From positions 2,298 through 66,297 of the forward strand of contig JABJAL010000034.1 of NCBI GenBank assembly GCA_018669005.1: DNA of 64,000 nucleotides, written 5' to 3'. This document shows, piece after piece, positions 2,946-53,257 of this stretch; within the stretch, counting starts at the first letter, position 1; every line of letters starts with the position of its first letter. This stretch comes from Nitrospinaceae bacterium. Its GTDB lineage: Bacteria; UBA8248. A program made the translations under genes and the position numbers. Under the pieces are notes generated by a model. It made no database searches. It saw only the letters and a program-made list of their open reading frames with translations, and was not told the DNA's origin.

Positions 2946-3387
2946 TGGATTTTCCCTTGGGGCCTAGGTTAATCGTCACGCGTGTTCGAAGAAGCGCCGA
3001 GCGGACGAAAATGGTGGCCGTCCAGCCGGGCTTATCAAACGTTAGCGCAGCCTCTTCTCTTTCGATGCTGTTGATGAGCTTCCAGCCGTGCTCGGACATT
3101 CTCTCTCGGTAGAAGGCAACGGTATCGTGGTAGTTTTTAAAGCCCGTGTAGACGAGTGTTCCGGCACGGGTGCCCGGTGTCTCGAATATGAAAGAATCGG
3201 AGGAGGACAGCGACAGGCCATTGGGGACCGGAAGATCGGCGAACCGGAATTTCTTGGGGTCGAGTGGTTTTTGGTCGGCGAATGGGTTAATGCCGTCAAA
3301 TGTTGAGCACCCTCCGACGAGGACGAGTAGCACCAAGGGCAACAGGGTTATCCATTTTTTGAATTGGCGCATAACTGAAAACTCCAC
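2914..3387 (-). CDS. hypothetical lipoprotein
   Basis: Signal peptide with LVGGCS lipobox. No recognisable catalytic motifs. Confidence 0.5.
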   Translation of the reverse strand: MEFSVMRQFKKWITLLPLVLLVLVGGCSTFDGINPFADQKPLDPKKFRFADLPVPNGLSLSSSDSFIFETPGTRAGTLVYTGFKNYHDTVAFYRERMSEHGWKLINSIEREEAALTFDKPGWTATIFVRSALLRTRVTINLGPKGKSIVEEDIPARK

Positions 3388-3542
3388 CTCATGGGGGGGC
3401 GTATAATCTCATTTGGGCGGGTAGACTACAAAGTATCCCCACGCGAAAATTGGTGCAACCCCGTTTTCGGGAATAGTGATGGTTTGCACGTAATTGAAAT
3501 GCTACCTTGGAGCTGTCCCGATTGCGCCGAAGGTGAAAGTAA

Positions 3543-4418
3543 ATGATTCGAAAACAATTTCATGTCCCGATTTTCATCGTCGCCGCCTCGCTCGCGGTTT
3601 CAGTGGCGGCGCATGCCCAGCCGGGAAATGGGTTGAAGGTTGAGTCTAATGGGATCCCGCTTAAAGCAACCGGTCCCACTGCCGCCTCGCCGTTTATCCT
3701 CGCACTTGATGCTGGCCATGGTGGCCGCGATACAGGTAGCCGGGGATCCGGTGCACTTCTCGAAAAAGATGTCACCCTCCGGGTAGTTAAACTACTTGCC
3801 GAGCGGCTAGGCCGTCGTCCCGAGATCAAGGTGGTTCTCACGCGTGAGGCAGACGCCGAGATTAGTGCTGTTCGAAGGGCGGCCATCGCGAATCACAACG
3901 GCTCGGCCCTCATGCTCTCGATTCAGGCCGATGCCTCCTGGCGGCCCGATGCACGTAATCCCTCAATCATAGTCGCCGCACCACAGCGCCCGCCCCGTGT
4001 GGAGGGTGAGGGGGACGATGCCCTGGCCCTAAGGTGGCAGCGTGGCCAGAACATTAACCTGGCTGGTAGCCGTCGATTCGCTCGCGGGATTCAAAAGCGG
4101 TTCGCAAAACTTCGGGGCGGGGAGAAGCCCTCGATACGCTCGCTACTTCCGCGCTCGCTTGAGGGGGCCAGGATGCCGGCCGTCTACATCAGCCTTGGGG
4201 TGATTTCGACGCCCGAGGAGGAGGCCCGCCTTCGAGAGATGGATGAAAAAAGCCCCTACATCGCCGCCATTGAGGCCGAAGTCGTTCGCTATGCGGGCCT
4301 GCCTGAAAAACTGCCCGAACCAGCCGAACCAACCGGCTCAGAGGCGGTTAAAGAAAAAGCCGAGCCTGAGGCGCTCGACGAAAGCAACGCCTTCCGCCCA
4401 CCTGACGGAGGGAACTAA
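3543..4418 (+). CDS. amiC: N-acetylmuramoyl-L-alanine amidase (Amidase_3 / AmiC family)
   Basis: Signal peptide. LDAGHGGRDTGSRG Zn-binding motif of the Amidase_3 family. Confidence 0.75.
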   Translation: MIRKQFHVPIFIVAASLAVSVAAHAQPGNGLKVESNGIPLKATGPTAASPFILALDAGHGGRDTGSRGSGALLEKDVTLRVVKLLAERLGRRPEIKVVLTREADAEISAVRRAAIANHNGSALMLSIQADASWRPDARNPSIIVAAPQRPPRVEGEGDDALALRWQRGQNINLAGSRRFARGIQKRFAKLRGGEKPSIRSLLPRSLEGARMPAVYISLGVISTPEEEARLREMDEKSPYIAAIEAEVVRYAGLPEKLPEPAEPTGSEAVKEKAEPEALDESNAFRPPDGGN

Positions 4419-12367: not shown

Positions 12368-12520
12368 GCCAGGTGAGGGGCTCTCGAATTCGGCGGCTTT
12401 TCTTGTTTCGGCGCCGATATAGAAGTATGTTTCTCATTATTACCTGAAAAACGGCTCCGTTGCACTTCCATACACGGCTGGCCCAGGCGGGCTGGTGGTT
12501 CAATTCCAAAGGGGTTCAAA

Positions 12521-13105
12521 ATGCCTTTTATCAAAACAATTGACGAGGGTGATGCCGAGGGCGAGCTCAAGGCGTACTACGACAAGATGGGGGGACGCGT
12601 AGGAAATATCCAGAAGATATACAGCATCAAGCCCCCGCTGCTGCAGGCGTATCGCGATTTTTCCCGTGCCGTGACTTTCGGCGCCACCAGCCTTGGTCGG
12701 CGGCGCGAGGAAATATTGGCGGTGGCGATTTCCTCGATGATCAAGTGTAAGTACTGAACGGTCTCGCACGGAGAGTTTCTCCGTGAGGTGAGCGAGGGCG
12801 ACGCGACGCAGGACGCACTGGATTTGAAGGAGGATTTCAGAGAGGCCGACATTGCTCCCGAGGAGGTGGCGATGCTTGAGTACGCCGAGAAAATCACGCT
12901 TGCCCCCTGGACCGTAACCGAGGCGGATGTCGAGAATTTGCGGTCTCATGGCTTTGACGATGTGGCGATACTGGAAATTGCCACTGTTTCGGCTTACCGA
13001 AATTACATCGCCCGGGTGGCGAATGCCCTCGGGGTCGAGCTTGAGGATACAAAATTCGCGGATAACCCTGAGGCCCGTGCCACCATGATCGAGGGGCTCG
13101 TTTAA
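12521..13105 (+). CDS. AhpD-like / carboxymuconolactone decarboxylase-family selenoprotein (in-frame UGA = Sec at 12755-12757)
   Basis: ORFs 12521-12757 and 12788-13105 are in the same frame. The TGA falls at the second Cys of the AhpD CxxCxxxH motif, giving IKCKY-U-TVSHGEF. A hairpin follows about 10 nt downstream. Confidence 0.8.
12767..12785 (+). promoter_or_regulatory. bSECIS-like stem-loop downstream of the in-frame UGA
   Basis: cacggag-agttt-ctccgtg gives a 7-bp perfect stem with an AGUUU loop. It starts 10 nt after the TGA. Confidence 0.6.
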
Positions 13106-14176: not shown

Positions 14177-14244
14177 GGCAGCCTTTTAAGCCCCTTTCCC
14201 CCCGATTGACACCCGAGGCCGGAGGGGTAATTATCGATGGGCAG

Positions 14245-14405
14245 TAGGACCTGCTAGGGGTGGGTATCTGAGAGCCTTGAGACCTGAGGCAACCCTTAGA
14301 ACCTGATCTGGGTAATTCCAGCGAAGGGAAGCGGGGCTGAAAGTTCGGAAAGAGTTTTTTCCGGCATTTAGAGCCGCTTCCCCCTGGGGGACAGCGGTTT
14401 TTTTG
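14245..14405 (+). promoter_or_regulatory. TPP (THI-box) riboswitch with intrinsic-terminator expression platform
   Basis: Conserved ggggtgg..CTGAGA..aaccc..gaACCTGATCTGGgTAATtCCAGCGaAGGGAA core. Hairpin 14374-14397 followed by a T7 run, upstream of thiS. Confidence 0.85.
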
Positions 14406-14426: not shown

Positions 14427-14627
14427 ATGCAAATACAGGTGAACGGCGAGGCGAGGGAGGTCGAGGCGGGGAGCACGGTAGCTGCGCTTCTTGATGAACT
14501 CGGCCTCGATGTGAGCGGGCTCGCCGTTGCCGTTAACATGGACATCGTCCGCCGCGGTGATTACGCCGCGACAAAATTTTCCGAGGGCGATGAAATCGAA
14601 ATTGTGCGCGCCGTGGGTGGCGGCTAG
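14427..14627 (+). CDS. thiS: sulfur carrier protein ThiS
   Basis: 66 aa, MQIQVNGE..., ending in GG. Confidence 0.85.
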
Positions 14628-28582: not shown

Positions 28583-29383
28583 TTGCCAGTGAATACCTTG
28601 AATGAAACTGAATCGCATTTTCAGGGCAAGGTTGCTTTGATCACTGGTGCCTCGCGAGGTATTGGCGCGGCCGTGGCGAGATGCCTTGCCCGGGCGGGGG
28701 TGGATTTGGTGATCAATCACCGCGAGGGCCGGGGTCGCTCGGGTAAAATGGCCGAAGAGTTGTGCCGCGAAGCTGAGGCGGAGGGCGTACGCGCCATAGC
28801 GGTTCCTGCTGATATTGCAAAAAAAGATGCGGTCGAGGCCCTATTCACCAGGGCCGAAGAAGAATTTGGTCGCCTAGATTTTCTTGTGCTCAACGCCGCC
28901 CGCGCTCCTTTTAAGCCGTGGGAAAAACTTTTGGAGCGCGATCTCCGCCAACTGGTAGATACGAATTACTTGGGCAACGTTTTTTGCATGCAGAAGGCGA
29001 TTGCCCCTCTTTCCAGGCGGGGTGGGGCCGTTGTGTTTCTTTCGAGCCTGGGAAGCCGGTTTGTTAATCCGGACTATCCATTAGGCTCGATGAAGGCGGC
29101 GATGGAGTCAGCCGTGAAGTATTGGGCAGAAAGCTGGGGCGAGCAGGGCATTTCGGTGAACGCTGTTTGTGCCGGTCTGGTGATGACGGATTCGTTCAAG
29201 ACGCTCCGGATGGTGAACCCGGACCTGGAGAACCTGCCTGAGCGGTTTTTTCTATCGCCCGAGGAGGTTGCCGGGGTGGTCCAGTATCTGTTGGGGCCAG
29301 CGAGCGGGGTCATACGGGGGCAGACGGTGGTGGCCGACAAGGGTGTGAGCAACCGCCTACTCTGGCCATCCCCCCCAGGATGA
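28583..29383 (+). CDS. SDR family oxidoreductase (first gene of FAS/PKS-like operon)
   Basis: TGASRGIG Rossmann motif, NAA, and Y-x5-K (YPLGSMK). TTG start with aaggtaagg RBS. Confidence 0.7.
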   Translation: MPVNTLNETESHFQGKVALITGASRGIGAAVARCLARAGVDLVINHREGRGRSGKMAEELCREAEAEGVRAIAVPADIAKKDAVEALFTRAEEEFGRLDFLVLNAARAPFKPWEKLLERDLRQLVDTNYLGNVFCMQKAIAPLSRRGGAVVFLSSLGSRFVNPDYPLGSMKAAMESAVKYWAESWGEQGISVNAVCAGLVMTDSFKTLRMVNPDLENLPERFFLSPEEVAGVVQYLLGPASGVIRGQTVVADKGVSNRLLWPSPPG

Positions 29384-29537
29384 TGCATTCTTGCCTCCCC
29401 CGGTCCCGAAGTTGCACATTGCCGGGCAGAGCGTTTTAATGCAGGTCTAATGTCATGGTTGATATTGATATGGGGTCCGGGCGGTTGTCTTATCCCTTTG
29501 ATAATAGGACATTCATAAGAGGCACGAGGAGAAACAA

Positions 29538-30095
29538 ATGGCGCAGAACATGATCAGTGAAGAGCGGATCATGCAGGAAGTCTTCGACGCAATCGTTCAC
29601 ACCACCGGTGTGGACAAGGACACGATTACCCCGGATAGCTCGCTTGTGGAAGATCTGGATGTCCTGTCTCTTGATTTTCTCGATGTGAATTTTCGGCTAG
29701 AGCAGGTCTTCGGTATCAAAATGGCCCGCAGCTTTGTTCTTGAGCATGTCGAGGAAATGTTTGGCGAGGGTGTGGCAATAGATGAGAACAACGATGTCAC
29801 TGAAAAGGGTGTCGAAATTCTAAAGTTGCGCCTGACTGAGGCGGCGAACGATCTCGATCCGGGAACCCCTGTCGATGAACTTCCGGCCCTCGTTACCTCC
29901 CGAACGCTTGCAGCGGGTGTTGGTGACATTCTTGCCCACTTGCCGGACAAGAGCCCTGCCGGGGTGGACTGGAAAACGGAGGACGGCACTCACATTGTCT
30001 GCTCTGAAACCGGCAAAGCCCCTGTGTTGCCCAGCGGCGATGATGTGATCCAGAACTGGCTGAAATCTCTCCAGGAAGAAAAACAAATCTTCTAG
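29538..30095 (+). CDS. acyl carrier protein with ~100-aa C-terminal extension
   Basis: ACP core aligns to the canonical pattern (LDVLSLDFLDV vs LGADSLDTVEL), with the Ser conserved. Followed by a non-ACP C-terminal half. 185 aa. Confidence 0.55.
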   Translation: MAQNMISEERIMQEVFDAIVHTTGVDKDTITPDSSLVEDLDVLSLDFLDVNFRLEQVFGIKMARSFVLEHVEEMFGEGVAIDENNDVTEKGVEILKLRLTEAANDLDPGTPVDELPALVTSRTLAAGVGDILAHLPDKSPAGVDWKTEDGTHIVCSETGKAPVLPSGDDVIQNWLKSLQEEKQIF

Positions 30096-30125
30096 TTCAC
30101 TCGCCGCCCTGTTTTACCTCGGGAG

Positions 30126-31445
30126 TTGCCCTCGATGGCACGGCCCCAAAAACGTGTCGTAGTTACCGGCTACGGGATGATGACTCCCCTCGGGGGAGAT
30201 GTTGCCTCCAGTTTCGATGCGGCGCGCGAGGGAAAATCCGGCATCGACTATATCCGCCTTTTCGACCCGGCGAAGCTGCCCTGTCAAATTGCTGGTGAAG
30301 TGGACGACGCCTGGATTGAGGCACGCGAGGTGCCCTCCCACCGCAAACTTCTAAAATTTGCCACGCGTGGCGTCCGGATGATGCTTACAGCTACGGGAGA
30401 GTCCGCGAGCCACGCTCGCCTTAGCGAGATTGCTGATCGCTCTCGCATTGGGGTCGCGATCGGATCGCATGGCGAGCACCCTGATATTCCCCAGATGATT
30501 CAACTATTCCGCCAGTGGCGCCCGGGTGGTGGCTCCCCCTGGGAGGGCCATTGGGACTTCAGCGAGCTATTTAATTCGGGTGGCTACGATTTCCTTCAGT
30601 TCTATCGGCGAAAAATAGATGTGGCCACTTCTGTAGTGGCGACAGGGTTTGATGCCCAAGGACCGACGATTTCGGTTTGCTCGGCCTGCGCGGCGGGTGG
30701 GCAGGCAGTGGGCGAGGCACTTCGCTTGATTCGCGACGGGAAGGCGGATGCGATGATCGCGGGTGGTTGTGAATCTGCGATCTCCTATGCCGGTTTTTTT
30801 GGTTTCGTTCTCCTGACAGCGCTTGTTGAAAAGTACGAAACGCCACAGATGGCCTCGCGCCCCTTCGACCGGCGGCGAAACGGTTTTGTCATGTCTGAGG
30901 GCGCTGGCTCTTTAGTGCTTGAGGAACTTGAACACGCGCTGGCACGAAAAGCGCCAATTTTGGGCGAGGTGCTAGGCTACGGCGATTCGGCTGATGCTTT
31001 TCGCATTACTGACATGCACCCCAAGGGAGCCGGAGCCGTTCTTGCGATGCGTGGGGCGCTCGCTGATGCAGGCATTTCTATCGAAGATGTGGATTACATT
31101 AATGCGCACGGTACATCGACTCCTAAAAATGATCTCACCGAAACGACTGCGATTAAACAAGTGTTCGGCGATAGGGCGAGTAGCATTCCGATAAGTTCGA
31201 ACAAATCAATGGTCGGGCACACTATTGGAGCGGCGGGCGCAGTTGAGGCAATCTTCTCTCTTGAAGGAATGCGCCGCTCGGAGATTCTTCCCACAATTAA
31301 CTACGAGAACCCGGACCCGAAGTGCGATCTGGATTATGTTCCTAATGAAATGCGTCCCTCCGAGCACCGGGTTGTCTTGTCGAACAGCTTTGGTTTCGGC
31401 GGACAAAATGCCTCGCTTTGCTTTGGCCGCTACGAGGGTGAGTGA
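30126..31445 (+). CDS. beta-ketoacyl-ACP synthase (KS alpha-like, FabF family)
   Basis: Active-site Cys (SVCSACAAGG) and both His motifs (NAHGTSTPKND, VGHTIGAAG). Confidence 0.85.
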   Translation: MPSMARPQKRVVVTGYGMMTPLGGDVASSFDAAREGKSGIDYIRLFDPAKLPCQIAGEVDDAWIEAREVPSHRKLLKFATRGVRMMLTATGESASHARLSEIADRSRIGVAIGSHGEHPDIPQMIQLFRQWRPGGGSPWEGHWDFSELFNSGGYDFLQFYRRKIDVATSVVATGFDAQGPTISVCSACAAGGQAVGEALRLIRDGKADAMIAGGCESAISYAGFFGFVLLTALVEKYETPQMASRPFDRRRNGFVMSEGAGSLVLEELEHALARKAPILGEVLGYGDSADAFRITDMHPKGAGAVLAMRGALADAGISIEDVDYINAHGTSTPKNDLTETTAIKQVFGDRASSIPISSNKSMVGHTIGAAGAVEAIFSLEGMRRSEILPTINYENPDPKCDLDYVPNEMRPSEHRVVLSNSFGFGGQNASLCFGRYEGE

Positions 31446-32689
31446 ACTCGATGTCTACTACTTTTGCCGTCACAGGAGGCGGAATAGTCTCTGCGGCGGG
31501 AAGAGGTGTGGACGTCGCATGGGAGTCGCTTTGTAAGGGTGAAAGTTTTCTCGCCCTGGATGTTGATCCCGGCCTCTCGGGTTTTGCGCCGATAGCCTCG
31601 GCGCGATGTGCTGCCATTGACCCTGAGGAACTTGGTGCTGATCGACGCGCCGCACGAATCATGGGGCATCAAACCCACATGTTGCTCGCTACGGTATCCG
31701 AGGCGATTAAAAAATCAGGTAAAGACATTGGCGGCGAGGAGACAGCTTTTTTTGCCGGAATGGATTCGGTAGACCCTGAGGAGGGCGATCTCGTTTCCGC
31801 TGCGCTGTCCGCGCGCAAGGAGGGCGGCGTTGATTTGGATAAATTTTATGACGAGGGGATGGCGCAAATTCCGCCGCTCTGGCCGCTCGGAATGCTCAAT
31901 GCCATTGGGTTCTGTCAGGTGGCGATTCAGTTCGATTTGCGGGGCGAGAACGGAACATTCAGCCCGGGACCTGAGGCCGCTAGTCGGGCCTTGATTGAGG
32001 CAGCCGAGTCCTTGCGAGAGGAAAAGGCGGGGGTCGCGCTGGCCGCCGGGGTGAGCCCATCTGTTTCGGCTCGCTCCGTTGCCCGCTATATCAATCGTGG
32101 ATTCTTGCCTGTATCAGGTGATGGTCAATTTCCCCGTCCTTTTTCGGGTGCTGGTGTCGCTGCACTGGGAGAGGGCGCAGGCGTTTTGTTGATTGAGTCC
32201 GGGAAGGCCGCAGCGGCGAGAGGGGCTGCTAGCATGGGATTTTTGAGAGGGTGGGGTCGAGCCACCGCTCTCGATGAAGGTGCAGGGCTCAAAGAGGCGA
32301 TTAAGGATTCGATTGGCGTGGCGCTAGGATCGGCTGGATTAAGCCCTGGCGATGTGGACCTCGTGGTGGTTCACGGTGCGGGACATCCCGATGAGGATGA
32401 GGCCGAGGCTGCGGCGTTGTTAAGTGTATTTGGCGCGCGCCGCCCGTACGCACTTGCGACAAAGGGCGCCCTTGGTCATCTTTTAGGGGCCTCGCCAATT
32501 GTGGATTTGTTGCTGGCGCTCCGAGCGCTGGGTGAGGGTGTTGTATTGCCGAGCCCGGGGGTGGGCGAGATGGGGCAGGATGCCCTTGAGTTTTCGGATG
32601 TTCCCGTGGCCGCCGAAATGAAAAGGGCGCTAGTTTTGTCGAGAGGATTTGAGGGCTCATGTGCGGCGTTTTGTGCTAGCGCGGCATGA
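31442..32689 (+). CDS. ketosynthase-like chain-length-factor (KS beta/CLF) paralog lacking active-site Cys
   Basis: KS fold throughout, but the active-site Cys position reads LRGENGTFSPGP. Overlaps the upstream KS by 4 nt. Confidence 0.65.
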   Translation: MNSMSTTFAVTGGGIVSAAGRGVDVAWESLCKGESFLALDVDPGLSGFAPIASARCAAIDPEELGADRRAARIMGHQTHMLLATVSEAIKKSGKDIGGEETAFFAGMDSVDPEEGDLVSAALSARKEGGVDLDKFYDEGMAQIPPLWPLGMLNAIGFCQVAIQFDLRGENGTFSPGPEAASRALIEAAESLREEKAGVALAAGVSPSVSARSVARYINRGFLPVSGDGQFPRPFSGAGVAALGEGAGVLLIESGKAAAARGAASMGFLRGWGRATALDEGAGLKEAIKDSIGVALGSAGLSPGDVDLVVVHGAGHPDEDEAEAAALLSVFGARRPYALATKGALGHLLGASPIVDLLLALRALGEGVVLPSPGVGEMGQDALEFSDVPVAAEMKRALVLSRGFEGSCAAFCASAA

Positions 32690-32728
32690 AACGATTATCT
32701 GGTCATTGTTTTATCCGAGGAGAGAGAT

Positions 32729-33190
32729 TTGCGGTTCCTCTACTTTGATCGCATCACCGAGGTTGAGAGCGGAAAGCGAGTCAGCGGGGTAAAGACGTTC
32801 CCGTTGTCCGAGGCCTATCTCAAGGGGCATTTTACCCGAGCGCCTCTGATTCCGGGCTCGATTCTGATCGAAGCCATGGCTCAGATCACGGGCTGGCTCA
32901 TTGTCTATACCCACAAATGTGAGACGGCCTGCGTAATTTCGCTTATCAACAACGTCAAGGTGCCCATCGACCTTCGGGCGGGGACGACGGTGGATATTCA
33001 CGGTGAAATACTCGACACCGATAAACGCTGGAGCCGGTGCCGTGCGTGGGTGGAGCGCGATGGCGAGACGATTGCGAGCGCGGATCGATTTTTGTTTCCA
33101 CATTTCAAAGAGCCATATCCTGAGGAAACGGCCCAACGGTTTCGCCATTTGGGCTGGCTTGAGCCCCGCTGGGACTGGGAGGCATCGTGA
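32729..33190 (+). CDS. FabZ/FabA-like 3-hydroxyacyl-ACP dehydratase (hotdog)
   Basis: LKGHFTRAPLIPGSILIEAMAQ matches the FabZ catalytic motif. Confidence 0.75.
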   Translation: MRFLYFDRITEVESGKRVSGVKTFPLSEAYLKGHFTRAPLIPGSILIEAMAQITGWLIVYTHKCETACVISLINNVKVPIDLRAGTTVDIHGEILDTDKRWSRCRAWVERDGETIASADRFLFPHFKEPYPEETAQRFRHLGWLEPRWDWEAS

Positions 33191-34458
33191 GCGAAGTTCA
33201 CATCACCGGTATGGGCATGGTGACAGCCCTCGGTTCAGATTTGGAGACCGCATGGAGCAAAGCGCTTCGGGGTGAATCTGGTGCGCGAGCGGTTTCTTCT
33301 TTCGAGGCCGGGCGTCTTCCCATCGCGGGGGCGGGCGAGGTGTCGCTGGAGGAACTCGCCGCTCTCAAAGAGCGGCTTCCGGAGGAATACGCTGGCGAGG
33401 GGGAGCGGCGTGTGCTGTTCGCCCTCGATGCCGCGCAGAGTGCACTTGAGGATGCGGGATTGGCACTAGGAGAGGCAGATCCTGTGCGCTCGGGCGTGCT
33501 GATGGGAACCGGATTAAGTTCCTATCGCCTAGAGGATTTTGCTGCCTGGATTGGCGAGGATGATAAATTTGATACTACCCGTTTTGCGGTCGAGATCGAG
33601 AAGACCCATCCAGCGGGATATTTTCGAAATCCGCCAGAGCGGGCCACCTCGCTGATTTCTAAGTGGGCCGGCTTCAGAGGCCCATCGGCTACGATGACTT
33701 CAGCTTGCGCAGCAGCCGGGCAGGCCATTGGCCTTGGCATGCGTATGATTCGCCGGGGAGAGGCCGACGTTATCCTCTGCGGCGGGGCGGACTCGATGAT
33801 CCATCCTGTCGGGATGGCGATTTTTCTACTCCTTGGCGCAGCGACGACCACCGACGCCCCACCTGAGAATCTTTGTCGCCCCTTTGACAGGAGACGCTCG
33901 GGCCTGGTGGTTGGCGAGGGGGCCGGGGTGCTGGTTCTTGAGTCAGCCGAGCATGCCTCTCGGCGCGGGGCGAGGGTCTATGCCAAACTGTCTGGCTACG
34001 GGTCGAGCATGGATGCCTATCAGGTGACAGCGCCCGATCCAAAGGGAAGGGGCGCTGCACGCTCGATGAGTGAGGCGCTTCGTGATGCTGGGATGGCCCC
34101 CGAGGATATCGCTTATGTAAATGCCCATGGGACGGGAACGAAGCTTAATGATCCAGCCGAGACGCTGGCGATTAAAGAGGTGTTCGGCCCTTGGGCGGAA
34201 AAACTCGCTATCAGTTCGAGCAAGTCGATGATTGGCCATCTTATTGCGGCCTGCGGTGCGCCCGAGTTGATATTCACCACGCTCAGCGTGGCTCGCGATG
34301 AAGTGCATCCCACTCTGAATCTGGAAAACCCTGATCGCAAGTGCGATCTTGATTATGTCCCGAACGAGTCACGCAAGATGGCGGTTCCCGCCGCGATATC
34401 GAACTCGTTTGGTTTTGGTGGCCAGAACGTGACTCTCGTTGTCAGAAAGGCGGCATAG
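33187..34458 (+). CDS. beta-ketoacyl-ACP synthase (FabB/FabF family)
   Basis: MTSACAAAGQA active-site Cys, NAHGTGTKLND and IGHLIAACGA His motifs. Confidence 0.85.
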   Translation: MSEVHITGMGMVTALGSDLETAWSKALRGESGARAVSSFEAGRLPIAGAGEVSLEELAALKERLPEEYAGEGERRVLFALDAAQSALEDAGLALGEADPVRSGVLMGTGLSSYRLEDFAAWIGEDDKFDTTRFAVEIEKTHPAGYFRNPPERATSLISKWAGFRGPSATMTSACAAAGQAIGLGMRMIRRGEADVILCGGADSMIHPVGMAIFLLLGAATTTDAPPENLCRPFDRRRSGLVVGEGAGVLVLESAEHASRRGARVYAKLSGYGSSMDAYQVTAPDPKGRGAARSMSEALRDAGMAPEDIAYVNAHGTGTKLNDPAETLAIKEVFGPWAEKLAISSSKSMIGHLIAACGAPELIFTTLSVARDEVHPTLNLENPDRKCDLDYVPNESRKMAVPAAISNSFGFGGQNVTLVVRKAA

Positions 34459-35211
34459 ATGAACATTGATTTGAGCGGAAAGGTGGCGCTTGTAACCGGA
34501 GGCGGGCGCGGCATAGGGCGTGCGTGCGCTCTGGCGCTCGCGGCGTCGGGCGCACAGGTGGCGATCAACTACAGCGCCTCGCAAGAAGCGTCCGAGGAGG
34601 TGAAGGCCGAAATTGAAAAGGCCGGTGGCCGGGCCGAGTGCTATCAGGCGGATGTCTCCTCATTCGAGCAGGTCGAGGCCATGTTCGAGAAGGTGAAGGA
34701 GGATTTTGGCACGCTGGATATTCTGGTGAACAACGCAGGTGTCATCAAGGACACGCTTTTGCTACGTATGAAGCCTGCCGACTGGGATAAAGTTATCGGG
34801 GTGAGCCTGAATGGCGTTTACAACTGCACGAAAATGGCGGCCGAGATTATGATGCGCGCGCGCACAGGGTGTGTCGTGAATATTTCCTCGATCATTGGAA
34901 TCATGAGTGGTGGCGGGCAGACGAACTATGCCGCCGCCAAGGCGGGGGTGATTTCATTCACACGGGCCTGCGCGGCTGAAATGAGCGGGCGCGGGCTGCG
35001 CTTCAACGCCGTTTTGCCCGGTATGATTGAAACCGACATGAGCGAGGTTGCCCGAAAACACGCGGGCGATAAAATTATGGAGCGAATTCCTTCGAAACGG
35101 TTCGGGCAGCCAGAAGATATTGCCGGTATTGTCGTATTTCTCTCCTCGTCGGCGTCGAGCTACATCAATGGCGAGGCGATTACAGTTGACGGCGGCATGC
35201 ACATCGGTTGA
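34459..35211 (+). CDS. fabG: 3-oxoacyl-ACP reductase FabG
   Basis: TGGGRGIG, NNAG, and S...Y-AAAK catalytic tetrad (NYAAAKAG). Confidence 0.85.
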   Translation: MNIDLSGKVALVTGGGRGIGRACALALAASGAQVAINYSASQEASEEVKAEIEKAGGRAECYQADVSSFEQVEAMFEKVKEDFGTLDILVNNAGVIKDTLLLRMKPADWDKVIGVSLNGVYNCTKMAAEIMMRARTGCVVNISSIIGIMSGGGQTNYAAAKAGVISFTRACAAEMSGRGLRFNAVLPGMIETDMSEVARKHAGDKIMERIPSKRFGQPEDIAGIVVFLSSSASSYINGEAITVDGGMHIG

Positions 35212-35227
35212 GGAGCGGAGAATTAGA

Positions 35228-35635
35228 GTGCGTTTGTATCAGGGCGTTGATTTAATAGAGATTGATCGGATTAAGGTGGCGCATGATCGCCAAGGGGCTT
35301 TCGGAAAAGATATTTTTACGGAGGCCGAACTGGCATATTGCAATTCTCGGCCCGATCCGTATCCGCATTTAGCTGGGCGCTTTGCGGCCAAGGAGGCATG
35401 CCTCAAAGCCTTCGGGGTGGGAATGGGTGGATTCGGCGCCATCGGTCGTTTTCAGGAGATTGAAGTGGAATCCACGCCCTCGGGCAAACCTACTCTCCTT
35501 CTGCACGGGTCGATGGAGAAAATGCGAATGCGGCTCAAGATTGATCAGGTGACGGTTTCGATTAGCCACGCCGATAGTTTCGCTGTAGCGACGGTGATGA
35601 TGCTAGGCGCAGCCGCGGGCGTTGAGGAAGAATAA
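35228..35635 (+). CDS. acpS: holo-ACP synthase (4'-phosphopantetheinyl transferase AcpS)
   Basis: GVDLIEIDRI N-terminus, FAAKEAxxKA and SISH motifs. GTG start. 136 aa. Confidence 0.75.
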   Translation: MRLYQGVDLIEIDRIKVAHDRQGAFGKDIFTEAELAYCNSRPDPYPHLAGRFAAKEACLKAFGVGMGGFGAIGRFQEIEVESTPSGKPTLLLHGSMEKMRMRLKIDQVTVSISHADSFAVATVMMLGAAAGVEEE

Positions 35636-35650
35636 CAATGCGGGAGGAGC

Positions 35651-36106
35651 ATGATGCGCTATTTGCTGGTTGATCGCGTGACTTCATGGGAGCGCGGAGC
35701 CACCATGGTAGGCGTCAAGAACGTCACCATGAGCGAGGATTTCTTGGAATTTCACTTTCCGCGCTTTCCTGTGATGCCTGGCTCGATGATTCTTGAGGCG
35801 CTCGTTCAACTAACAGGATGGCTTGAGGCGGCGAGTTCTGATTTTTCCAGATGGTTTCTTCTTGAGCAGGTTAAGACGGTTAAATATTACGGTTTCGCCC
35901 TGCCGGGCGACCAGATTGAACTCAGAGTCGAGGCAGCCGGGGAAGATGAAGGGCTTGCTCTCTACAAGGGTCTTGCCCAGGTAGAGGGCGAGCGAAAAGT
36001 GGTGGTAGATTTTGCCGGTAGGATGGTTGATCTCAAAGACTATGAAGATCCTGCTGAGCAGGCGCACCTTTTTAAAATATTAAATCGAGAAATAACACTC
36101 TCTTAA
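35651..36106 (+). CDS. second FabZ-like hotdog dehydratase
   Basis: FLEFHFPRFPVMPGSMILEALVQ hotdog catalytic motif. Confidence 0.7.
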   Translation: MMRYLLVDRVTSWERGATMVGVKNVTMSEDFLEFHFPRFPVMPGSMILEALVQLTGWLEAASSDFSRWFLLEQVKTVKYYGFALPGDQIELRVEAAGEDEGLALYKGLAQVEGERKVVVDFAGRMVDLKDYEDPAEQAHLFKILNREITLS

Positions 36107-36119
36107 AAGAGCGGTTGAT

Positions 36120-37415
36120 ATGATGGAAGGCAGGGAAGTCTGGATTACGGGTGCCGGGATGCTCTCCCCTCTTGGGGCTGGCGTCGATGCGAATTGGGAG
36201 GGGCTTCGGTCCGGGCGGCGCGGCGTCGTTCGACAGCCTCAGCAGAATGCGGCCCCGTTTCCCGATAACTTTCTCTATTTCGGCACGGTGGCAGGTCATG
36301 AAGAGCCGCCAGAGGTGCCGCCCAATCTCAACAGCCAGAGGAAATTTCTGAACCGCTCCTCGATCCTTGGGCTCCACGCGGCCGCAGAGGCGATTGAGAG
36401 CGCAGGTGTTGATTTGCTGTCCATGCCGCCTGAGCGAAAATCGCTTTATGTCGGCTCTGGTGACTACACACGTCTTGAGTATCTCGATTTTTACCAGTCC
36501 TTTGCCGAGACCGCTGGTCCCTATTGGGGTCTTCCCGATCCAGAGGAGTTGAACGAGGTGGCGCTACATCAGGTGAACCCGTTTTATCTGCTGGAAGGGC
36601 TGGCGAATAATCTTTTCAGCTTCCTAACGGCGAGCTACGAAATTATGGGCACGAACGGGAGCATTGCGAGCCTGTCCTCGTGTGGTGCGCAAGCTCTTGA
36701 GGGTTGTGATCGGGCTCTTCGCTGGGGGAAGGCGGATCTCGGCCTGGTGGTGGGTTGCGGGTGCTGGATCAGCGCGTTGATTCGTTTCGAACTTGACGGA
36801 CTGGGAATACTTTCCAGAGCCCACGATGGAGTCGACTCGTTCAGGCCACTGGACAGGCGGCGCGATGGGTTTTTCCCGTCCGAGGGGGCTGCTGCTCTGG
36901 TGCTAGAGGTGGCGGAGGTTGCAGAGGCGCGAGGCGCAAAACCAATTGGAAGAATACTGGGCACGGGAAATTTTCAGGAAGTTTCGTCGGGTGCCCATAT
37001 CTCGGTGCCAGGCGATTCTGTCAGCCGAGCGAGCCGGGCGGCGATGGGCGAGGGCGATAAGTCCCCCACCGACCTTTCTTTTGTCCTTCCGCATGGGAGC
37101 GGCACCAAAAAGGGAGATCGCGCCGAAATGCGGGCGCTCAAGGAATTTCTGAGCGGGAGCGAAGTGCCCCTTGCAGCCTGGAAACCCCATACGGGCCACA
37201 TGGGTTCGGCTAGTGATGTGGGTGAAATGATTCTCGGTCTCAAGGCGCTCCGGGAGGGTGCTCTTCCACCTACCCTGGGCTTCGAGACGGCTGAAAAAGA
37301 ATTCGACAATCTCGATATCGCTGCCGAGGAAAGAGTGATCGAGGGGGACTCGTTTCTTTCGCTGAGTCATGGCCTTGGCGGCCAGTCTTCCGCCACACTT
37401 TTATCGGCACCGTGA
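36120..37415 (+). CDS. third beta-ketoacyl synthase-family protein
   Basis: KS N-terminus (VWITGAGMLSPLG), Cys (SSCGAQ), and His motifs (LPHGSGTKKGD, TGHMGSASD). Divergent from FabF/FabB. Confidence 0.7.
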   Translation: MMEGREVWITGAGMLSPLGAGVDANWEGLRSGRRGVVRQPQQNAAPFPDNFLYFGTVAGHEEPPEVPPNLNSQRKFLNRSSILGLHAAAEAIESAGVDLLSMPPERKSLYVGSGDYTRLEYLDFYQSFAETAGPYWGLPDPEELNEVALHQVNPFYLLEGLANNLFSFLTASYEIMGTNGSIASLSSCGAQALEGCDRALRWGKADLGLVVGCGCWISALIRFELDGLGILSRAHDGVDSFRPLDRRRDGFFPSEGAAALVLEVAEVAEARGAKPIGRILGTGNFQEVSSGAHISVPGDSVSRASRAAMGEGDKSPTDLSFVLPHGSGTKKGDRAEMRALKEFLSGSEVPLAAWKPHTGHMGSASDVGEMILGLKALREGALPPTLGFETAEKEFDNLDIAAEERVIEGDSFLSLSHGLGGQSSATLLSAP

Positions 37416-38434
37416 GTCCGGTAGTCGGGCGGGCCGCGAAGCCCCGCAAAAAACGACGCCGTAGCAAGGATAAAAGCCCCCTTCAGCAGAATGCTGAATT
37501 TTTCGCTGTCTTTGGTGCCCTCTCGATCATTCGATGGATCCCGCTCTGGTTGTGTAATATCCTCGCCAGACTTGTCGGGGCTGCTGTTTTCCAGCTAGCT
37601 CCACGTCGCCGAAAAATTCTTCTGAATAATCTTGAAATCGCATTTCCAGACATGAGCGAGGACGAGCGGGCCCGTATGGCGCGGGCGAGTTGTCGCTCGT
37701 TTGTGCTGACCGGGCTTGAAAGCGTCAAGTATCTCTACCGTTTTCGAATCGATGACGCGGAAAAGGAAGTTCGCCGGATGATCGATGGGGTGGAGTCTGT
37801 TTTCGATCAAGCGAGGCAGCTGCACGATGAGGCGGGTGGGTGCATTTTCGTAGTGCCTCATTTGGGTAACTGGGAGCTTATCGTGCACGGTGCCACAATT
37901 GCGCGAATACCAGTGACGGTTGTTGTGAGACCTCTCGACAATCCGAAACTAGAAAAACATCTATTCGAGATGCGCTCAGGTTCAGGGCAAGAGATTCTTG
38001 CAAAGCGAAATGCGCTCTTCTACCTCAGGACAGCACTACGAAAGGGAAGATCGGTTGGTCTGCTGGCGGATCAGCATGCCGGGATGAAGGGAATCGACGT
38101 GCCGTTTTTCGGGAAACCAGCGAGCACCACGACGGGACCTGCTGCCCTCGCCATTTCCTTTGGTCGCCCGATTATGCTGGTTGCTTGTGTGCGAAAGCCT
38201 GGAGGAGGAGCATATGAGGTGCTTTTGAGCGACCCGATTGTGCCCGACACAGAGGCGGAATCGCTTGTTGAGATCGAGCGGCTGACGACGCTTATGAACG
38301 TAGAGATTGAAAAGTTTGTCCGTAAATGCCCGGATCAATATTTGTGGCTGCACGATCGCTGGAAGCTAACGAAACTTTGGGGGCGATCGGCAGAATTTCT
38401 TGCGGAAAAAGAAAAAGAAGAAAAAAACGATTAA
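37412..38434 (+). CDS. LpxL/HtrB/MsbB-family lysophospholipid (lipid A-type) acyltransferase
   Basis: N-terminal TM helix, HLGNWE (HX4E/D) catalytic motif, and C-terminal QYLWLHDRWK signature. Confidence 0.75.
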   Translation: MSPVVGRAAKPRKKRRRSKDKSPLQQNAEFFAVFGALSIIRWIPLWLCNILARLVGAAVFQLAPRRRKILLNNLEIAFPDMSEDERARMARASCRSFVLTGLESVKYLYRFRIDDAEKEVRRMIDGVESVFDQARQLHDEAGGCIFVVPHLGNWELIVHGATIARIPVTVVVRPLDNPKLEKHLFEMRSGSGQEILAKRNALFYLRTALRKGRSVGLLADQHAGMKGIDVPFFGKPASTTTGPAALAISFGRPIMLVACVRKPGGGAYEVLLSDPIVPDTEAESLVEIERLTTLMNVEIEKFVRKCPDQYLWLHDRWKLTKLWGRSAEFLAEKEKEEKND

Positions 38435-44983: not shown

Positions 44984-45442
44984 TTAAACAGATTTTTCGC
45001 GAAGAACCATTCGTTTTACATCGTACTCAAGCACAACCTCGCCCGTTTGGTTGATGACTCTCTGGTGGCTGGCGACAACGCCCCTGTCGGGGCGGCTCGT
45101 GGAGGCTTTGGTCTCGTTGACTTCCACCTCGACGCGCAGGGTGTCGCCCGCATAAACCGGGGCCCGGGCGACGAGATTGTCTATTCCCAATAACGCCACG
45201 GCGTAGTTGTGCAGGATGCCCGTCTGGATGATGAGTGCGTCGGCTATCCCGGCGGTTAAAAGCGCTGGCGCCATGCGCCTGTCGTGTCCCTTTTCGCGCA
45301 AATATTCCATGTCGAGAAAGAGGCTCTCTGTGTAGCCCACCGTATTTACGTAGTTGACGATATCCGTCTCGGCGATGGTTCGCCCGCGAGTCGTAATTTT
45401 TTGTCCAACGACCCAGTCCTCTAAAGGAATCCCGCTCTGCAC
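44984..45442 (-). CDS. MaoC-family dehydratase (hotdog fold)
   Basis: 152 aa. The tIAETDIVNYVNTVG...D motif region is typical of MaoC R-hydratases. Confidence 0.7.
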   Translation of the reverse strand: MQSGIPLEDWVVGQKITTRGRTIAETDIVNYVNTVGYTESLFLDMEYLREKGHDRRMAPALLTAGIADALIIQTGILHNYAVALLGIDNLVARAPVYAGDTLRVEVEVNETKASTSRPDRGVVASHQRVINQTGEVVLEYDVKRMVLREKSV

Positions 45443-45706
45443 GCTTTTCTCCCTATAGGTAAACTTTATTTTGTCATGTGTCAGTGCTTGCTAAATTCTA
45501 GTCGATTCTTTAGTTGGAGACTAGAGGGGGGCGAGCTATTTTCTTTGTAAGTAATTGAAATAAAAATACTTGTATTGTTTTCTTTGAAGGTGAATCGAAA
45601 TGGGAACCCGCCGCGTCCAAAACGGCAGCAATGAAGTTTTGCACTTTTTTGGCTATTGGCGATATGGGCGACCGGAAGAGAGTCCAACAATCCGGGAGAT
45701 TACGAA

Positions 45707-46390
45707 ATGAAAAGATTTATGGTGATAGCGCTGGCGGGAATCATGGGCGGGGCGCTCTTTTTCACAGGCAGCGCCGATGCTTGGCACGGAGACAGACATT
45801 TTAGAGCGCGCCACATCCGCTCTCGGCATTTTCGTCCTCGTCACTTTCGACCCCCTATATTTTATTCGGGCTTTTATGGCCACCATTGGGGACACCGCCA
45901 CGTTCATCGTGAGCCTGTTTATGTTGAGCGTGTTTATCAGCCGGTAGGGACCACCACTACATATTCCACATACGAGCGCGCGGAAAATTCGAGCCAGGTG
46001 CTCGGTGCCATTCTCGGCGGCATCGGTGGCGGTGTCATCGGATCGCGAATTGGCGGGGGCAGGGGAAAGGTAGTTGCCACCGTCGCGGGCTCGATCATCG
46101 GTCTTTTGGCCGGAGGCGAGATTGGCAAGCAACTTGACGAGCGCCAGCAGCTTATTCTTGCGAGTACGACGAACCGTACCCTAGAGACATCCCGCTCGGA
46201 GACCGAAGTGCCCTGGCGCGACCCGGACTCAAATGCCCACGGTACAGTGATCCCGAAGCCCGCCTATCAAAATGCTCAAGGTCGCTACTGCCGTGAGTAC
46301 ACCCAGACCGTCGTCATCGATGGCAAGAGCAAACGTGCCTACGGAACCGCCTGTCGCCAGCCAGATGGAAGCTGGAACGTCGTCAATTAA
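45707..46390 (+). CDS. glycine-zipper 2TM / 17-kDa surface-antigen-like outer-membrane protein with His/Arg-rich N-terminal repeats
   Basis: Signal peptide. RHFRARHIRSRHFRPRHFRP repeats. Gly-zipper (GAILGGIGGGVIGSRIGGG). C-terminal YCREY...ACRQPDGSW. Confidence 0.55.
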   Translation: MKRFMVIALAGIMGGALFFTGSADAWHGDRHFRARHIRSRHFRPRHFRPPIFYSGFYGHHWGHRHVHREPVYVERVYQPVGTTTTYSTYERAENSSQVLGAILGGIGGGVIGSRIGGGRGKVVATVAGSIIGLLAGGEIGKQLDERQQLILASTTNRTLETSRSETEVPWRDPDSNAHGTVIPKPAYQNAQGRYCREYTQTVVIDGKSKRAYGTACRQPDGSWNVVN

Positions 46391-46407
46391 GCGCTACGAA
46401 ACAATAA

Positions 46408-46446
46408 AACGCCCCCACGGTTTGAAAATCGTGGGGGCGTTTATTG
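46408..46446. terminator. bidirectional rho-independent terminator
   Basis: acgcccccacgg/ccgtgggggcgt stem with T/A-rich flanks on both strands, between convergent genes. Confidence 0.8.
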
Positions 46447-46467
46447 TTCAGACTTAAAAGGCGATAT

Positions 46468-47517
46468 TTATCCGGCGACCATTATGGCGGCGCGTCCCAT
46501 AACCTCACCCTTTTCAAGACGCTCATGGACAAGCTCGGCGTCTCCAATGTTGAAGCCGTATTTTTCGGTAACAAGTGGCCAGACATCTCCCCGCGCCACA
46601 ATATCCAGCGTGTCGCTGACCTCCTGGCGCGTGCAGTAGCGGCTGCCCATGATGTTGAGTTCCTTGCCCGAGAGTTCGCCGCCCACGGCCTCGAAGGGTG
46701 TTTTGGAGCCGCCCCCGCCCAGCGTGGCGAGCCGGCCCCCGCGCCCGAGCGATCTGACGCCATCGGTGAGCGTTTTCTCGTTCGAGACGAAGTCCACCAC
46801 GACATCCACCCCATCTCCACCTGTCAGGTCCATCAACGCCTCTACCATTTTGCCGTCAGAGGCGTTCACCGTTTCGCTCGCGCCAATCTCGCGGCATTTC
46901 TCGAGTTTTTCGGGAACAACGTCCACTGCAATAACCCTAGCGCGCGCCCAGTGAGCCATCATCACCATATGGATGCCCAGGCCGCCGCCTGCACCAATGA
47001 CGGCGACAGTGTCAATCGGAGCGATTTGGGCCCGCCTGATAACTTTATAAGGCGTGGCCAGGGCGTCGGCGATGACGCCCACCTCCGCCGGGCGGCCCCT
47101 CCAGTCGAGGCTCTCTGGGATCTTGATGTAGTTGCGCTCGGGCATCTTGATGTATTCGGCGTAGCCGCCGTCGATCTGGCGGCCAACATGCCCGGCCAGG
47201 TTCGAGCAAAGCGTCGGCCTGTTGTTCAGGCACCATTTGCAGTGGCCGCAATCGAGGTAGAAATAGCATGTAACCGGGTCGCCTACCTTAAGGTTGTTCA
47301 CTCCGGTACCGGTCTCGACAATCTCGCCCGTGATCTCGTGGCCGATGATGACGGGATAGTTCGCGCCATGGTTGCGCCCAACGCGGGTGTGTTGAATTGT
47401 GAGGCCCGAGCCACAGGCCAGCACCCTAGCCACCGCTTCACCGGGACCGGGTTTCGGGTCCGGGCGCTCCTCCATCACAAAAGGCTCTCCAGGCCCAGGT
47501 AATACTATCGCTTGCAC
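46468..47517 (-). CDS. zinc-binding alcohol dehydrogenase (MDR family)
   Basis: GHEITGEIVETG and CGHCKWC zinc motifs, and GAGGGLG Rossmann motif. Confidence 0.8.
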   Translation of the reverse strand: MQAIVLPGPGEPFVMEERPDPKPGPGEAVARVLACGSGLTIQHTRVGRNHGANYPVIIGHEITGEIVETGTGVNNLKVGDPVTCYFYLDCGHCKWCLNNRPTLCSNLAGHVGRQIDGGYAEYIKMPERNYIKIPESLDWRGRPAEVGVIADALATPYKVIRRAQIAPIDTVAVIGAGGGLGIHMVMMAHWARARVIAVDVVPEKLEKCREIGASETVNASDGKMVEALMDLTGGDGVDVVVDFVSNEKTLTDGVRSLGRGGRLATLGGGGSKTPFEAVGGELSGKELNIMGSRYCTRQEVSDTLDIVARGDVWPLVTEKYGFNIGDAELVHERLEKGEVMGRAAIMVAG

Positions 47518-47552
47518 AACGGCTCCCCCTCTTTAGGATTGTTTGACGGTTG

Positions 47553-48833
47553 TCATGGAAGACGGCGGAGCGCTTTGGCGCCGATGTCTTTCCGGTAATA
47601 CGCATCGTCCCAATGAATCAGCCCGGCGGCCTCGTAGGCTCGCCCGAGCGCGGTTTTGATGTCGGGGCCTCGCGCCGTGATGCCGAGAACGCGCCCCCCA
47701 GATGTGGCGGCCTGGCCCTGCTCATCTTCCGAGGTTCCGGCGTGAAAAACATACGCGCCCCCGATGGCATTGGCCTCATTAAGCCCGCTAATCACGTCGC
47801 CCTTTCGATAGTCGCCCGGATAGCCCCCCGCAGCCATGACGACACAAGCTGCAGGTTCCACCGAGAACGAGACCACAGCATTGGCCAGGTTGCCCGTCGC
47901 ACAGGCGATAAGAACGGGCAATAGATCCGAGTCCATCCGCATTAAAAGCGGTTGGCACTCCGGGTCCCCGAAGCGGCAATTGAACTCCAGGACTTTAAAA
48001 TCTCCGTCCTTGATCATTAGCCCGGCATAGAGAATCCCCTTATAGGGTGTGCCAAGCTTGGCCAGTGCGCGCACCGTGGGTTCGATAACCTCGCGCATCG
48101 CGCGCGCCTCTAACTCGGGCGTCATTACCGGGGCAGGCGAATAGGCTCCCATGCCGCCCGTGTTGGGGCCGGTATCGCCCTCGCCTATGGGTTTGTGGTC
48201 CTGGGCCGAGGGCATGAGTACGGCAGTCTCGCCGTCCACAAAGGCAAGCAGGCTCGCTTCCTCGCCTTCGAGAAACTCCTCTACTACACATCGCTCGCCC
48301 GCCTCGCCGAAGGCGCGATTTTCCATGATCTCGGATATGGCGAGCTCGGCCGAGGCCGGATCCGGGCAGATGAGCACCCCCTTGCCAGCCGCAAGACCAT
48401 CCGCCTTAACGGCCCATCCGCCGCCGCGCTGTCTCACAAAGCTTTTCGCCTCATCAGGATTTTCGAACACCCCGAACGCGGCTGTCGGAATGCCCGCCTC
48501 CTGCATCAACTCTTTTGAAAATGCTTTGCTCGCCTCAAGGCGTGCGGCGCCCTTTTTGGGGCCAAAGGCTGTGATGCCTTCAGCCTCAAGCCGGTCGGCG
48601 AGTCCCATTGCCAAAGGGGCCTCGGGCCCGATGACGACAAGACCGGCCCCCTCGGCTTTTGCGAGTGTGACGATGCCCTCGATGTCCTCGGCACTGGTGG
48701 GCACATTGCGGCCAATTGTGGCCGTTCCCGCATTGCCGGGCGCGCAGATAATTTCCTCGGCCTCCGGGCTCTGGGCCAGTTTCCAGGCCAGCGCATGCTC
48801 GCGTCCGCCTCCGCCGACAATAATGACTTTCAT
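47553..48833 (-). CDS. purD: phosphoribosylamine--glycine ligase
   Basis: MKVIIVGGGGREHALAWKL N-terminus and ATP-grasp body. Confidence 0.9.
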   Translation of the reverse strand: MKVIIVGGGGREHALAWKLAQSPEAEEIICAPGNAGTATIGRNVPTSAEDIEGIVTLAKAEGAGLVVIGPEAPLAMGLADRLEAEGITAFGPKKGAARLEASKAFSKELMQEAGIPTAAFGVFENPDEAKSFVRQRGGGWAVKADGLAAGKGVLICPDPASAELAISEIMENRAFGEAGERCVVEEFLEGEEASLLAFVDGETAVLMPSAQDHKPIGEGDTGPNTGGMGAYSPAPVMTPELEARAMREVIEPTVRALAKLGTPYKGILYAGLMIKDGDFKVLEFNCRFGDPECQPLLMRMDSDLLPVLIACATGNLANAVVSFSVEPAACVVMAAGGYPGDYRKGDVISGLNEANAIGGAYVFHAGTSEDEQGQAATSGGRVLGITARGPDIKTALGRAYEAAGLIHWDDAYYRKDIGAKALRRLP

Positions 48834-48946
48834 CAGATGCTCCTAAGCCTGAATGATTCAGCGTGGTGTGATTTTAGGTAAGAGAAGATTGCACCCGAGG
48901 CGGCGGGGCGTCAATCCGCATGGATAAATGTTTACTTGAACAATTC

Positions 48947-48981
48947 ACCAAAAAGAAAACCCCCGTAGAGTCGCGGGGGTC
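48947..48981 (-). terminator. rho-independent terminator after rsmE
   Basis: On the minus strand, a cccccgcgactctacggggg hairpin is followed by ttttctttttgg. Confidence 0.6.
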
Positions 48982-49064
48982 TTACTTCAAGTCCCCGGCT
49001 TATACGGGCCGGGGCGCACGCCTGTTGGAATGATTATCCGGGTAAGTGCACCTGGCTGTCAAAA

Positions 49065-50710: not shown

Positions 50711-50999
50711 CAGGGGTCTTCCTTTAGGTGATAGCTGCCCGAAGGGCTAGCCTTTGAGCGGTAATATGACTTCGGCCGAGCCGGAGCTTGCCGCTTCGTC
50801 GAATTGATTGGTCCCGGTGAACTCAATGGAGATCGAGCTGCCCTCGCCTTTGCCAGTGACCTTGCCGGTCAGCTCGCGTGATTGGATACGAATTCCTCGA
50901 TTCTTGCCTCGGCATCGCTTGTCATTGGATTTTCTCCTTCAGATGAAGAATAAAGACTACAGATTAGAGCACTTTAAGTGGGGCGCTTCGATTCGGCAA

Positions 51000-52106: not shown

Positions 52107-52149
52107 GCCTCCGAATTTTGGGGGATTGATGAAAGAAAGGGAGCAGTCG

Positions 52150-53220: not shown

Positions 53221-53257
53221 GATTTTTCGAGTCCCATGGCAGGGCGAACAAGTATGG

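Follow-up and report, generated by a model that had tools for sequence, protein, structure and literature searches.

An in-frame UGA in an AhpD-like gene of Nitrospinaceae-labelled genomes as a predicted selenocysteine codon

The window analysed here, by which we mean the whole 64-kb stretch of DNA, contains two neighbouring open reading frames (ORFs) that raise the question of whether the TGA between them ends a protein or is a codon within a single gene. The ORF at 12521–12757 (78 aa) terminates with this TGA, the ORF at 12788–13105 (105 aa) starts with GTG, and both share a common frame. When translated, 12521–13105 on the forward strand is one frame of 194 codons that contains a single internal stop, the TGA at 12755–12757, and ends with a TAA at 13103–13105. 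The peptide around the TGA reads SSMIKCKY-[TGA]-TVSHGEFL and follows the pattern C76-x-x-[TGA]79-x-x-x-H83. The first-pass annotation had proposed one gene whose two ORFs are parted by the TGA, which agrees with the coordinates and the translation, and had placed the TGA at the second Cys of a C-x-x-C-x-x-x-H signature, which we found as C76-K-Y-[TGA]-T-V-S-H83. Judging from sequence comparisons, we consider it very probable that 12521–13105 encodes one 194-residue AhpD-like thiol/selenol oxidoreductase (TIGR01926, COG2128) with a predicted selenocysteine (Sec) at residue 79. The features of the reading frame are the following:

12521–13105, forward strand: complete coding sequence of the predicted AhpD-like (TIGR01926) selenoprotein, 194 codons including the predicted Sec79, with the TAA at 13103–13105.
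12510–12514, forward strand: Shine-Dalgarno-like AGGGG, located 6 nt 5' of the ATG at 12521, read from the sequence and putatively functional.
12746–12748, forward strand: TGT codon of Cys76, the first residue of the C-x-x-U redox motif, a Cys retained in nearly all homologs compared.
12755–12757, forward strand: in-frame UGA, predicted Sec79, which falls into the column of the second CxxC Cys in the homolog alignment.

Gene callers split the gene into the 78-aa and the 105-aa piece in every assembly seen, as had been expected of automated callers. In GenBank, the two pieces are named MBT3352478.1 ('hypothetical protein', 78 aa) and MBT3352477.1 ('peroxidase', 105 aa) and belong to 'Nitrospinaceae bacterium' MAGs. 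This public annotation as two proteins is most likely wrong, and there is one gene. In practical terms, reading the locus as one gene sets right an annotation error that recurs systematically, in at least four GenBank MAGs as well as in JGI and ENA assemblies, and it marks Nitrospinaceae-labelled marine MAGs as probable selenocysteine users.

To assign the protein to a family, we searched with the read-through product in which Cys was substituted at the TGA. The profile TIGR01926 (TIGR01926.1, NCBIfam 'peroxidase-related enzyme') scored 114.4 bits compared to a cut-off of 81.8, and the match qualifies as full-length: residues 2–174 correspond to profile positions 1–175 of 178, on both sides of the TGA. 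The Pfam family CMD (PF02627) matched residues 38–92 with 28.3 bits (gathering score 23); this match identifies only the fold, and no decarboxylase activity follows from it. Together, the two matches uphold the earlier assignment to the AhpD-like/CMD family. Other profiles scored lower. The AhpD core-domain model TIGR00778 stayed below its threshold (22.5 bits vs a cut-off of 27.8), as did NF041238 AhpD_rel_CFYUT (60.5 bits vs an equivalog cut-off of 175) and the NF053654 YciW-related (seleno)proteins (23.2 bits vs a cut-off of 310). Membership in NF041238 or NF053654 was rejected because the scores are far under the cut-offs, and a canonical AhpD, that is, an AhpC reductase, was rejected because TIGR00778 is below its cut-off and no ahpC is adjacent. 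Among the called genes of the window and its flanks, we found no peroxiredoxin genes of the AhpC-TSA or Redoxin families.

The read-through product also matched five solved homologs, namely 3c1l (E = 1.8e-25), 6k40, 2pfx, 2oyo and 2prr, with E-values from 1.8e-25 to 6e-19. The alignments to 3c1l and 6k40 span both halves, and in these two the motif CxYC stands against C76-K-Y-[TGA]79. Since the sequence matches five solved single-domain structures of about 190 residues, both halves are expected to lie in one domain.

The match extends to the residues of the active site. In AhpD of Mycobacterium tuberculosis, the proton relay consists of Glu118/Cys130/His132/Cys133/His137, and in PA0269 it consists of Glu36/Cys48/Tyr50/Cys51/His55 (PMC3141380). 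The window protein has E64, C76, Y78, U79 and H83, a relay spacing that is identical to E36/C48/Y50/C51/H55 of PA0269, with the predicted Sec in place of the second Cys. Glu64 is invariant in our alignment of homologs (alignment A2). Two further features of the gene are thus named by comparison to these relays:

12710–12712, forward strand: GAA codon of Glu64, which precedes the first Cys by 12 residues and corresponds to the Glu of the proton relay (Glu118 of M. tuberculosis AhpD, Glu36 of PA0269).
12767–12769, forward strand: CAC codon of His83, the motif His (His137 of M. tuberculosis AhpD), kept in the homologs listed; the codon doubles as the first 3 nt of the 5' arm of the hairpin described below.

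Which residue do homologs carry at the position of the TGA? Among full-length proteins in the databases, the closest two (P0001 and P0002, 54–56% identical) have Cys in this column, as does P0004. We then scanned for homologous loci, retaining one genome per species, which resulted in 59 loci. A TGA occurs at exactly the same column (CxYU) in 22 of the 59 loci and Cys in about 33; the window gene brings the total of Sec-type loci to 23. The TGA-type loci come from MAGs labelled Binatia, Deltaproteobacteria, Syntrophobacteraceae, Acidobacteriota, Acidimicrobiales, Promineifilaceae, Gemmatimonadota, Planctomycetota and Anaerolineales, among others. An alignment to Cys-containing AhpD-like homologs had been suggested as a check of the locus, and its outcome is consistent throughout: the TGA corresponds to the second Cys of CxxC in P0001, P0002 and P0004, in the approximately 33 Cys-type loci and in 3c1l and 6k40.

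The scan also revealed some unusual family members. At the second position of the motif, two loci have a residue other than Sec or Cys: an Alphaproteobacteria MAG (L013:3001–3630) has CGYA and a Latescibacterota chromosome (L017:3001–3528) has CDYG. Both are nested among Sec and Cys forms on a rough neighbour-joining tree and might be variants that are redox-inactive or work with one Cys. An uncultured deltaproteobacterial MAG (L010) contains three tandem AhpD-like genes (31–676, approximately 2350–2906 and 3001–3600), each with an in-frame TGA in CxxU (CLFU, CSYU and CSYU) and with a hairpin that matches our covariance model R1 (see below). A Thermodesulfobacteriota MAG (L012) contains two such TGA/CxxU genes (1336–1888 and 3001–3597), and the genes in these two MAGs form a small cluster of paralogous selenoprotein genes. 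Finally, one database protein (P0006, 254 aa, encoded on a 1311-bp ENA contig) combines an N-terminal ABC-ATPase part with an AhpD-like part in the last ~50 residues, where it is 76% identical to the window protein; this combination probably stems from chimeric assembly or from rearrangement of the locus.

In bacteria, Sec insertion at a UGA would depend on a SECIS element just downstream, and a hairpin is found at this position:

12767–12785, forward strand: SECIS-like hairpin, starting 9 nt past the UGA, with an 8-bp stem CACGGAGA/UCUCCGUG and the loop GUU at 12775–12777, as folded by RNAfold.

The arms cacggag/ctccgtg start at 12767, and RNAfold adds one A-U pair, which results in the 8-bp structure CACGGAGA-GUU-UCUCCGUG. 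We compared this hairpin to what might occur by chance. The fold of 66 nt has a z-score of -0.63 compared to shuffled sequences, and a stem of at least 8 bp follows 4.0% of the 2020 TGA trinucleotides in the window. When only those hairpins count as SECIS-like that start 7–15 nt downstream, have 8 bp or more in the stem and no more than 5 nt in the loop, and show a G among the first two loop bases, 13 of the 2020 TGAs in the window (0.64%) have one, and among these only the TGA at 12755 is in frame inside a coding sequence. Taken singly, the hairpin is at most mildly unusual and is not statistically exceptional. As the evidence from the single sequence is weak, the significance of the hairpin rests on the comparison of homologs. 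Searching the whole window against Rfam at gathering thresholds returned a TPP riboswitch only and no family for the hairpin, and a permissive Rfam search of 12650–12900 found nothing relevant.

When comparing the homologs, we find that the hairpin distinguishes Sec-type from Cys-type genes. A perfect stem of 5–10 bp that starts 7–15 nt after the UGA is present in all 23 Sec-type loci, and its 3–4-nt loop begins with G in 22 of them, whereas Cys-type genes have nothing consistent at this position. For the best stem of each locus, the median is 7 bp among Sec loci compared to 4 bp among Cys loci (Mann-Whitney p = 2.6e-8, which is indicative only as the samples are phylogenetically related). Local fold energies are -12.4 kcal/mol for the window and -10.3 kcal/mol for its ortholog L006, compared to -3.7 and -0.9 kcal/mol for the two closest Cys homologs. 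Furthermore, we built a covariance model (R1) from 11 Sec-type hairpins; among 60 sources, it matches only Sec-type genes, it finds 16 of the 23 Sec-type genes, and it uncovered extra tandem paralogs. In the alignment fitted to the model, 94.7% of the cells are paired compared to 31–57% when the partners are slid, and none of 500 shuffles reaches the observed values. Changes on both sides of the stem occur in 8 cells of this alignment, and covariation within this subset is modest; the larger compensatory stem differences fall between subfamilies. The hairpin just past the UGA that the first-pass annotation had judged fit for a bacterial SECIS is thus present at 12767, conserved, and specific to Sec-type genes.

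The sequence of the stem varies with the subfamily (GGAGA/UCUCC, GGAGC/GCUCC, GCGGAG/CUCCGC, GGAGAA/UUCUCC, CCGGCGC/GCGCCGG and CGACGC/GCGUCG). In an ungapped codon alignment of window positions 12755–12802 and 22 loci (alignment A3), the hairpins are placed in four or more registers with respect to the codons. The peptides after the catalytic His also differ with the subfamily (HGEFL, HHGAGL, HHGEGLL and HHRRGLRR), and the RNA structure seems to limit which residues the protein has in this part.

Conservation of the coding sequence bears on whether both halves are translated. Compared to seven orthologs, differences fall mostly on third codon positions, with many synonymous changes on both sides of the TGA; for instance, relative to L006, the part before the TGA has 30 synonymous and 27 non-synonymous changes, and the part after the TGA has 36 and 32, respectively. 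Such a pattern indicates that purifying selection acts on the two halves in this frame. In the stretch of 10 codons that separates the UGA from the GTG at 12788, 5–8 codons are identical, compared to about 30% elsewhere, and this high identity just after the UGA fits a combined constraint on protein and RNA.

A point against the prediction concerns the machinery for Sec insertion. Among the Pfam-labelled called genes of the 64-kb window and of 10 kb past each end, selA, selB and selD do not occur, and ARAGORN detected no tRNA genes in the window, tRNA-Sec included. We also searched the window for other selenoprotein genes, using TGA-joined ORF pairs, gene extensions across TGA and TGAs with a SECIS-like hairpin, and found none that is convincing. 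One same-frame ORF pair, at 32687, was rejected as a split selenoprotein since it consists of two distinct FAS-type genes. On the level of the lineage, BSepDB lists MAGs named Nitrospinaceae or Nitrospinota (GTDB phylum UBA8248) among the ten most selenoprotein-rich bacteria, with 48–54 genes each (PMC13326102); this richness is no more than suggestive of Sec use in the genome studied here.

How else could the TGA be explained? If it were a genuine stop, the locus would be a pseudogene or a split gene with a product of 78 aa and another of 105 aa that starts at GTG 12788. Such a reading would agree with the two pieces annotated by gene callers and GenBank, with the in-frame GTG 11 codons past the TGA, and with the lack of Sec machinery in the window and 10 kb on each side. 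It is nevertheless very unlikely: 22 homologs spread over many phyla have a TGA in this column, their two halves being conserved and in frame with each other, and both halves show purifying selection. In addition, the 10 codons from the TGA to the GTG would go untranslated, yet they hold His83 and keep TVSHGEFL. The solved homologs fold as a single domain across both halves, and neither fragment by itself carries the complete E-C-x-x-C-x-x-x-H site. A sequencing or assembly error is hardly credible: although a one-base change would restore a Cys codon (TGC or TGT), the 585 nt of the gene, TGA included, are identical in five assemblies from different samples (four NCBI MAGs and one ENA assembly), and the same TGA is found in 22 other species.

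The UGA might instead be read through without selenium, either by a near-cognate Cys- or Trp-tRNA or in a code that uses UGA as a sense codon. Sec insertion is a prediction here, and the same lack of machinery in the window and 10 kb on each side would be in line with this alternative. However, the stops of the 47 other mapped genes of the window are TGA in 16 cases, TAG in 17 and TAA in 14; as TGA ends 16 of the 47 genes, the code is standard and UGA is not globally reassigned. Moreover, the TGA at 12755 is the only one in the window that lies both in frame in a gene and before a SECIS-like hairpin, a G-loop hairpin that is specific to TGA-type homologs is the signature of SelB-dependent decoding, and the family is an established selenoprotein family. 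We thus see only a slim chance for read-through without selenium, and a slightly slimmer one for a genome that lacks Sec machinery and decodes UGA in some other way. Reading the in-frame UGA as selenocysteine, as was first proposed, is supported by the alignment to the Cys column, the 22 TGA homologs, the hairpin specific to Sec-type genes and the selection on both halves.

For the predicted selenoprotein, we infer the standard bacterial mechanism of Sec insertion. The ribosome would meet the UGA at 12755–12757 with the hairpin at 12767–12785 downstream. SelB, together with GTP and Sec-tRNA(Sec), would bind the hairpin, whose G-containing apical loop is situated about 18 nt downstream of the UGA, and would deliver Sec in place of termination by release factor 2, so that translation would run on to the TAA at 13103. 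In the protein, Sec79 and Cys76 would form a selenenylsulfide/selenol-thiol redox couple, with Glu64, Tyr78 and His83 at the presumed positions of the AhpD proton relay. The Sec would occupy the place of the second motif Cys. The equivalent residue in M. tuberculosis AhpD, Cys133, is reported to be exposed in the active-site cleft and to cross-link to Cys61 of AhpC (PMC6626918), and it is the residue by which the partner peroxiredoxin is attacked. Since Sec takes the place of this exposed Cys, the protein likely reduces an oxidised peroxiredoxin-type partner, or a hydroperoxide directly, and selenium would speed up the reaction. The Sec form of the TIGR01926 subfamily is a reasonable subject for enzymology; the window copy gives no special handle on the partner or the substrate.

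The genomic context was analysed as well. Upstream of the gene lies a divergent zinc-ADH gene; 67 nt downstream lies a Gfo/Idh/MocA oxidoreductase gene, which is followed by a TPP riboswitch and thiS-thiG-thiE. The riboswitch (RF00059, 65.7 bits) is located at 14246–14346 on the forward strand, upstream of thiS (14427–14627), thiG and a TMP-TENI (thiE-like) gene, and a sigma-70-like promoter match occurs near it at 14206–14234. To assess synteny of the neighbourhood, six neighbour proteins were compared by tblastn to the homologous loci L006–L064, with zero matches in the closest orthologs (L006–L012), and the gene order is not shared with them. Genes for cytochrome c oxidase subunits II and I lie at L067:12284–14438, about 2.3–4.4 kb beyond the start of the window; given these genes, the organism is probably aerobic or microaerobic, which fits a need for peroxide defence.

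Elsewhere in the window, a same-strand cluster at approximately 28589–38434 (forward strand) contains four ketoacyl-synthase genes, two short-chain dehydrogenase/ketoreductase genes and two FabA-type dehydratase genes, one of them ApeI-like. According to its Pfam labels, the cluster further encodes a phosphopantetheinyl transferase and a lipid-A-type acyltransferase, and its make-up resembles that of a dedicated type II FAS or aryl-polyene-like lipid pathway. Comparing the assemblies to each other, we observed that gene coordinates carried over from L066 (GCA_018663145.1) are off by one base for the eight genes mapped to approximately 44985–53221, and this offset suggests that the MAG and the window differ by a 1-nt indel in the range of approximately 53221–53453. 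The methionyl-tRNA synthetase is one ORF of 667 aa at 59672–61675 of the window and is split into 418 and 219 aa in an ENA assembly (L071:7963–9966); this split probably reflects variation between strains or faulty assembly and not a Sec site.

The distribution of Sec and Cys forms allows a tentative view of the history of the family. On the rough neighbour-joining tree, about five changes between Sec and non-Sec forms are needed. It is possible, although we would put the chance at rather less than even, that the family switched repeatedly between Sec and Cys and that the SECIS hairpin was rebuilt in different registers. If this is true, a single small family went through several gains or losses of Sec, and rebuilding the hairpin in different registers means that RNA structure dictates the protein sequence beside the active site. 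The approximately five switches on the rough tree agree with the published picture of a dynamic Sec/Cys exchange (PMC1794560).

Lastly, we compared the window gene to known systems. An 'AhpD-like protein, COG2128, CxxU' was described by Zhang, Fomenko and Gladyshev in 2005 as a new selenoprotein family of the Sargasso Sea, with 27 sequences and with predicted bacterial SECIS elements whose apical loop carries a conserved G (PMC1088965). 'AhpD-like 1' ranked fourth in abundance among the families of the Global Ocean Sampling data, with 299 Sec sequences and 902 Cys homologs (PMC2398784), and a review from 2026 includes the 'AhpD-like protein, TIGR01926, CxxU' (PMC13188914). The window gene resembles this family in the HMM family above cut-off, in the Sec in place of the second Cys, in the G-loop hairpin after the UGA and in the marine metagenomic setting. 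It differs in nothing of substance; the window copy comes from Nitrospinaceae-labelled MAGs and is deposited as two GenBank proteins. As far as sequence can tell, the gene agrees with the AhpD-like CxxU family on every criterion.

The relay Glu-x11-Cys-x-(His/Tyr)-Cys-x3-His of M. tuberculosis AhpD and PA0269 is reproduced in the window protein. Unlike these two, the window protein has a predicted Sec, scores below the threshold of TIGR00778, has no ahpC or peroxiredoxin gene adjacent and belongs to the 'peroxidase-related' subfamily. The closest solved sequences are 3C1L (Mlr4105), 2PFX, 2OYO and 2PRR ('uncharacterized peroxidase-related') and the AhpD 6K40, all of them single-domain proteins. 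In contrast to the window protein, all five are Cys forms, and no structure of a Sec form is among the matches. NF041238 and NF053654 are related selenoprotein families of the CMD/AhpD fold that share the CxxU motif and match the window protein weakly, but the window protein is not a member of either. The gene is thus an ordinary further member of a selenoprotein family that has been known since 2005 and that is among the most abundant marine selenoprotein families; it brings no new biology, and the only mildly new point is how much the SECIS registers and the stem sequences vary among its members.
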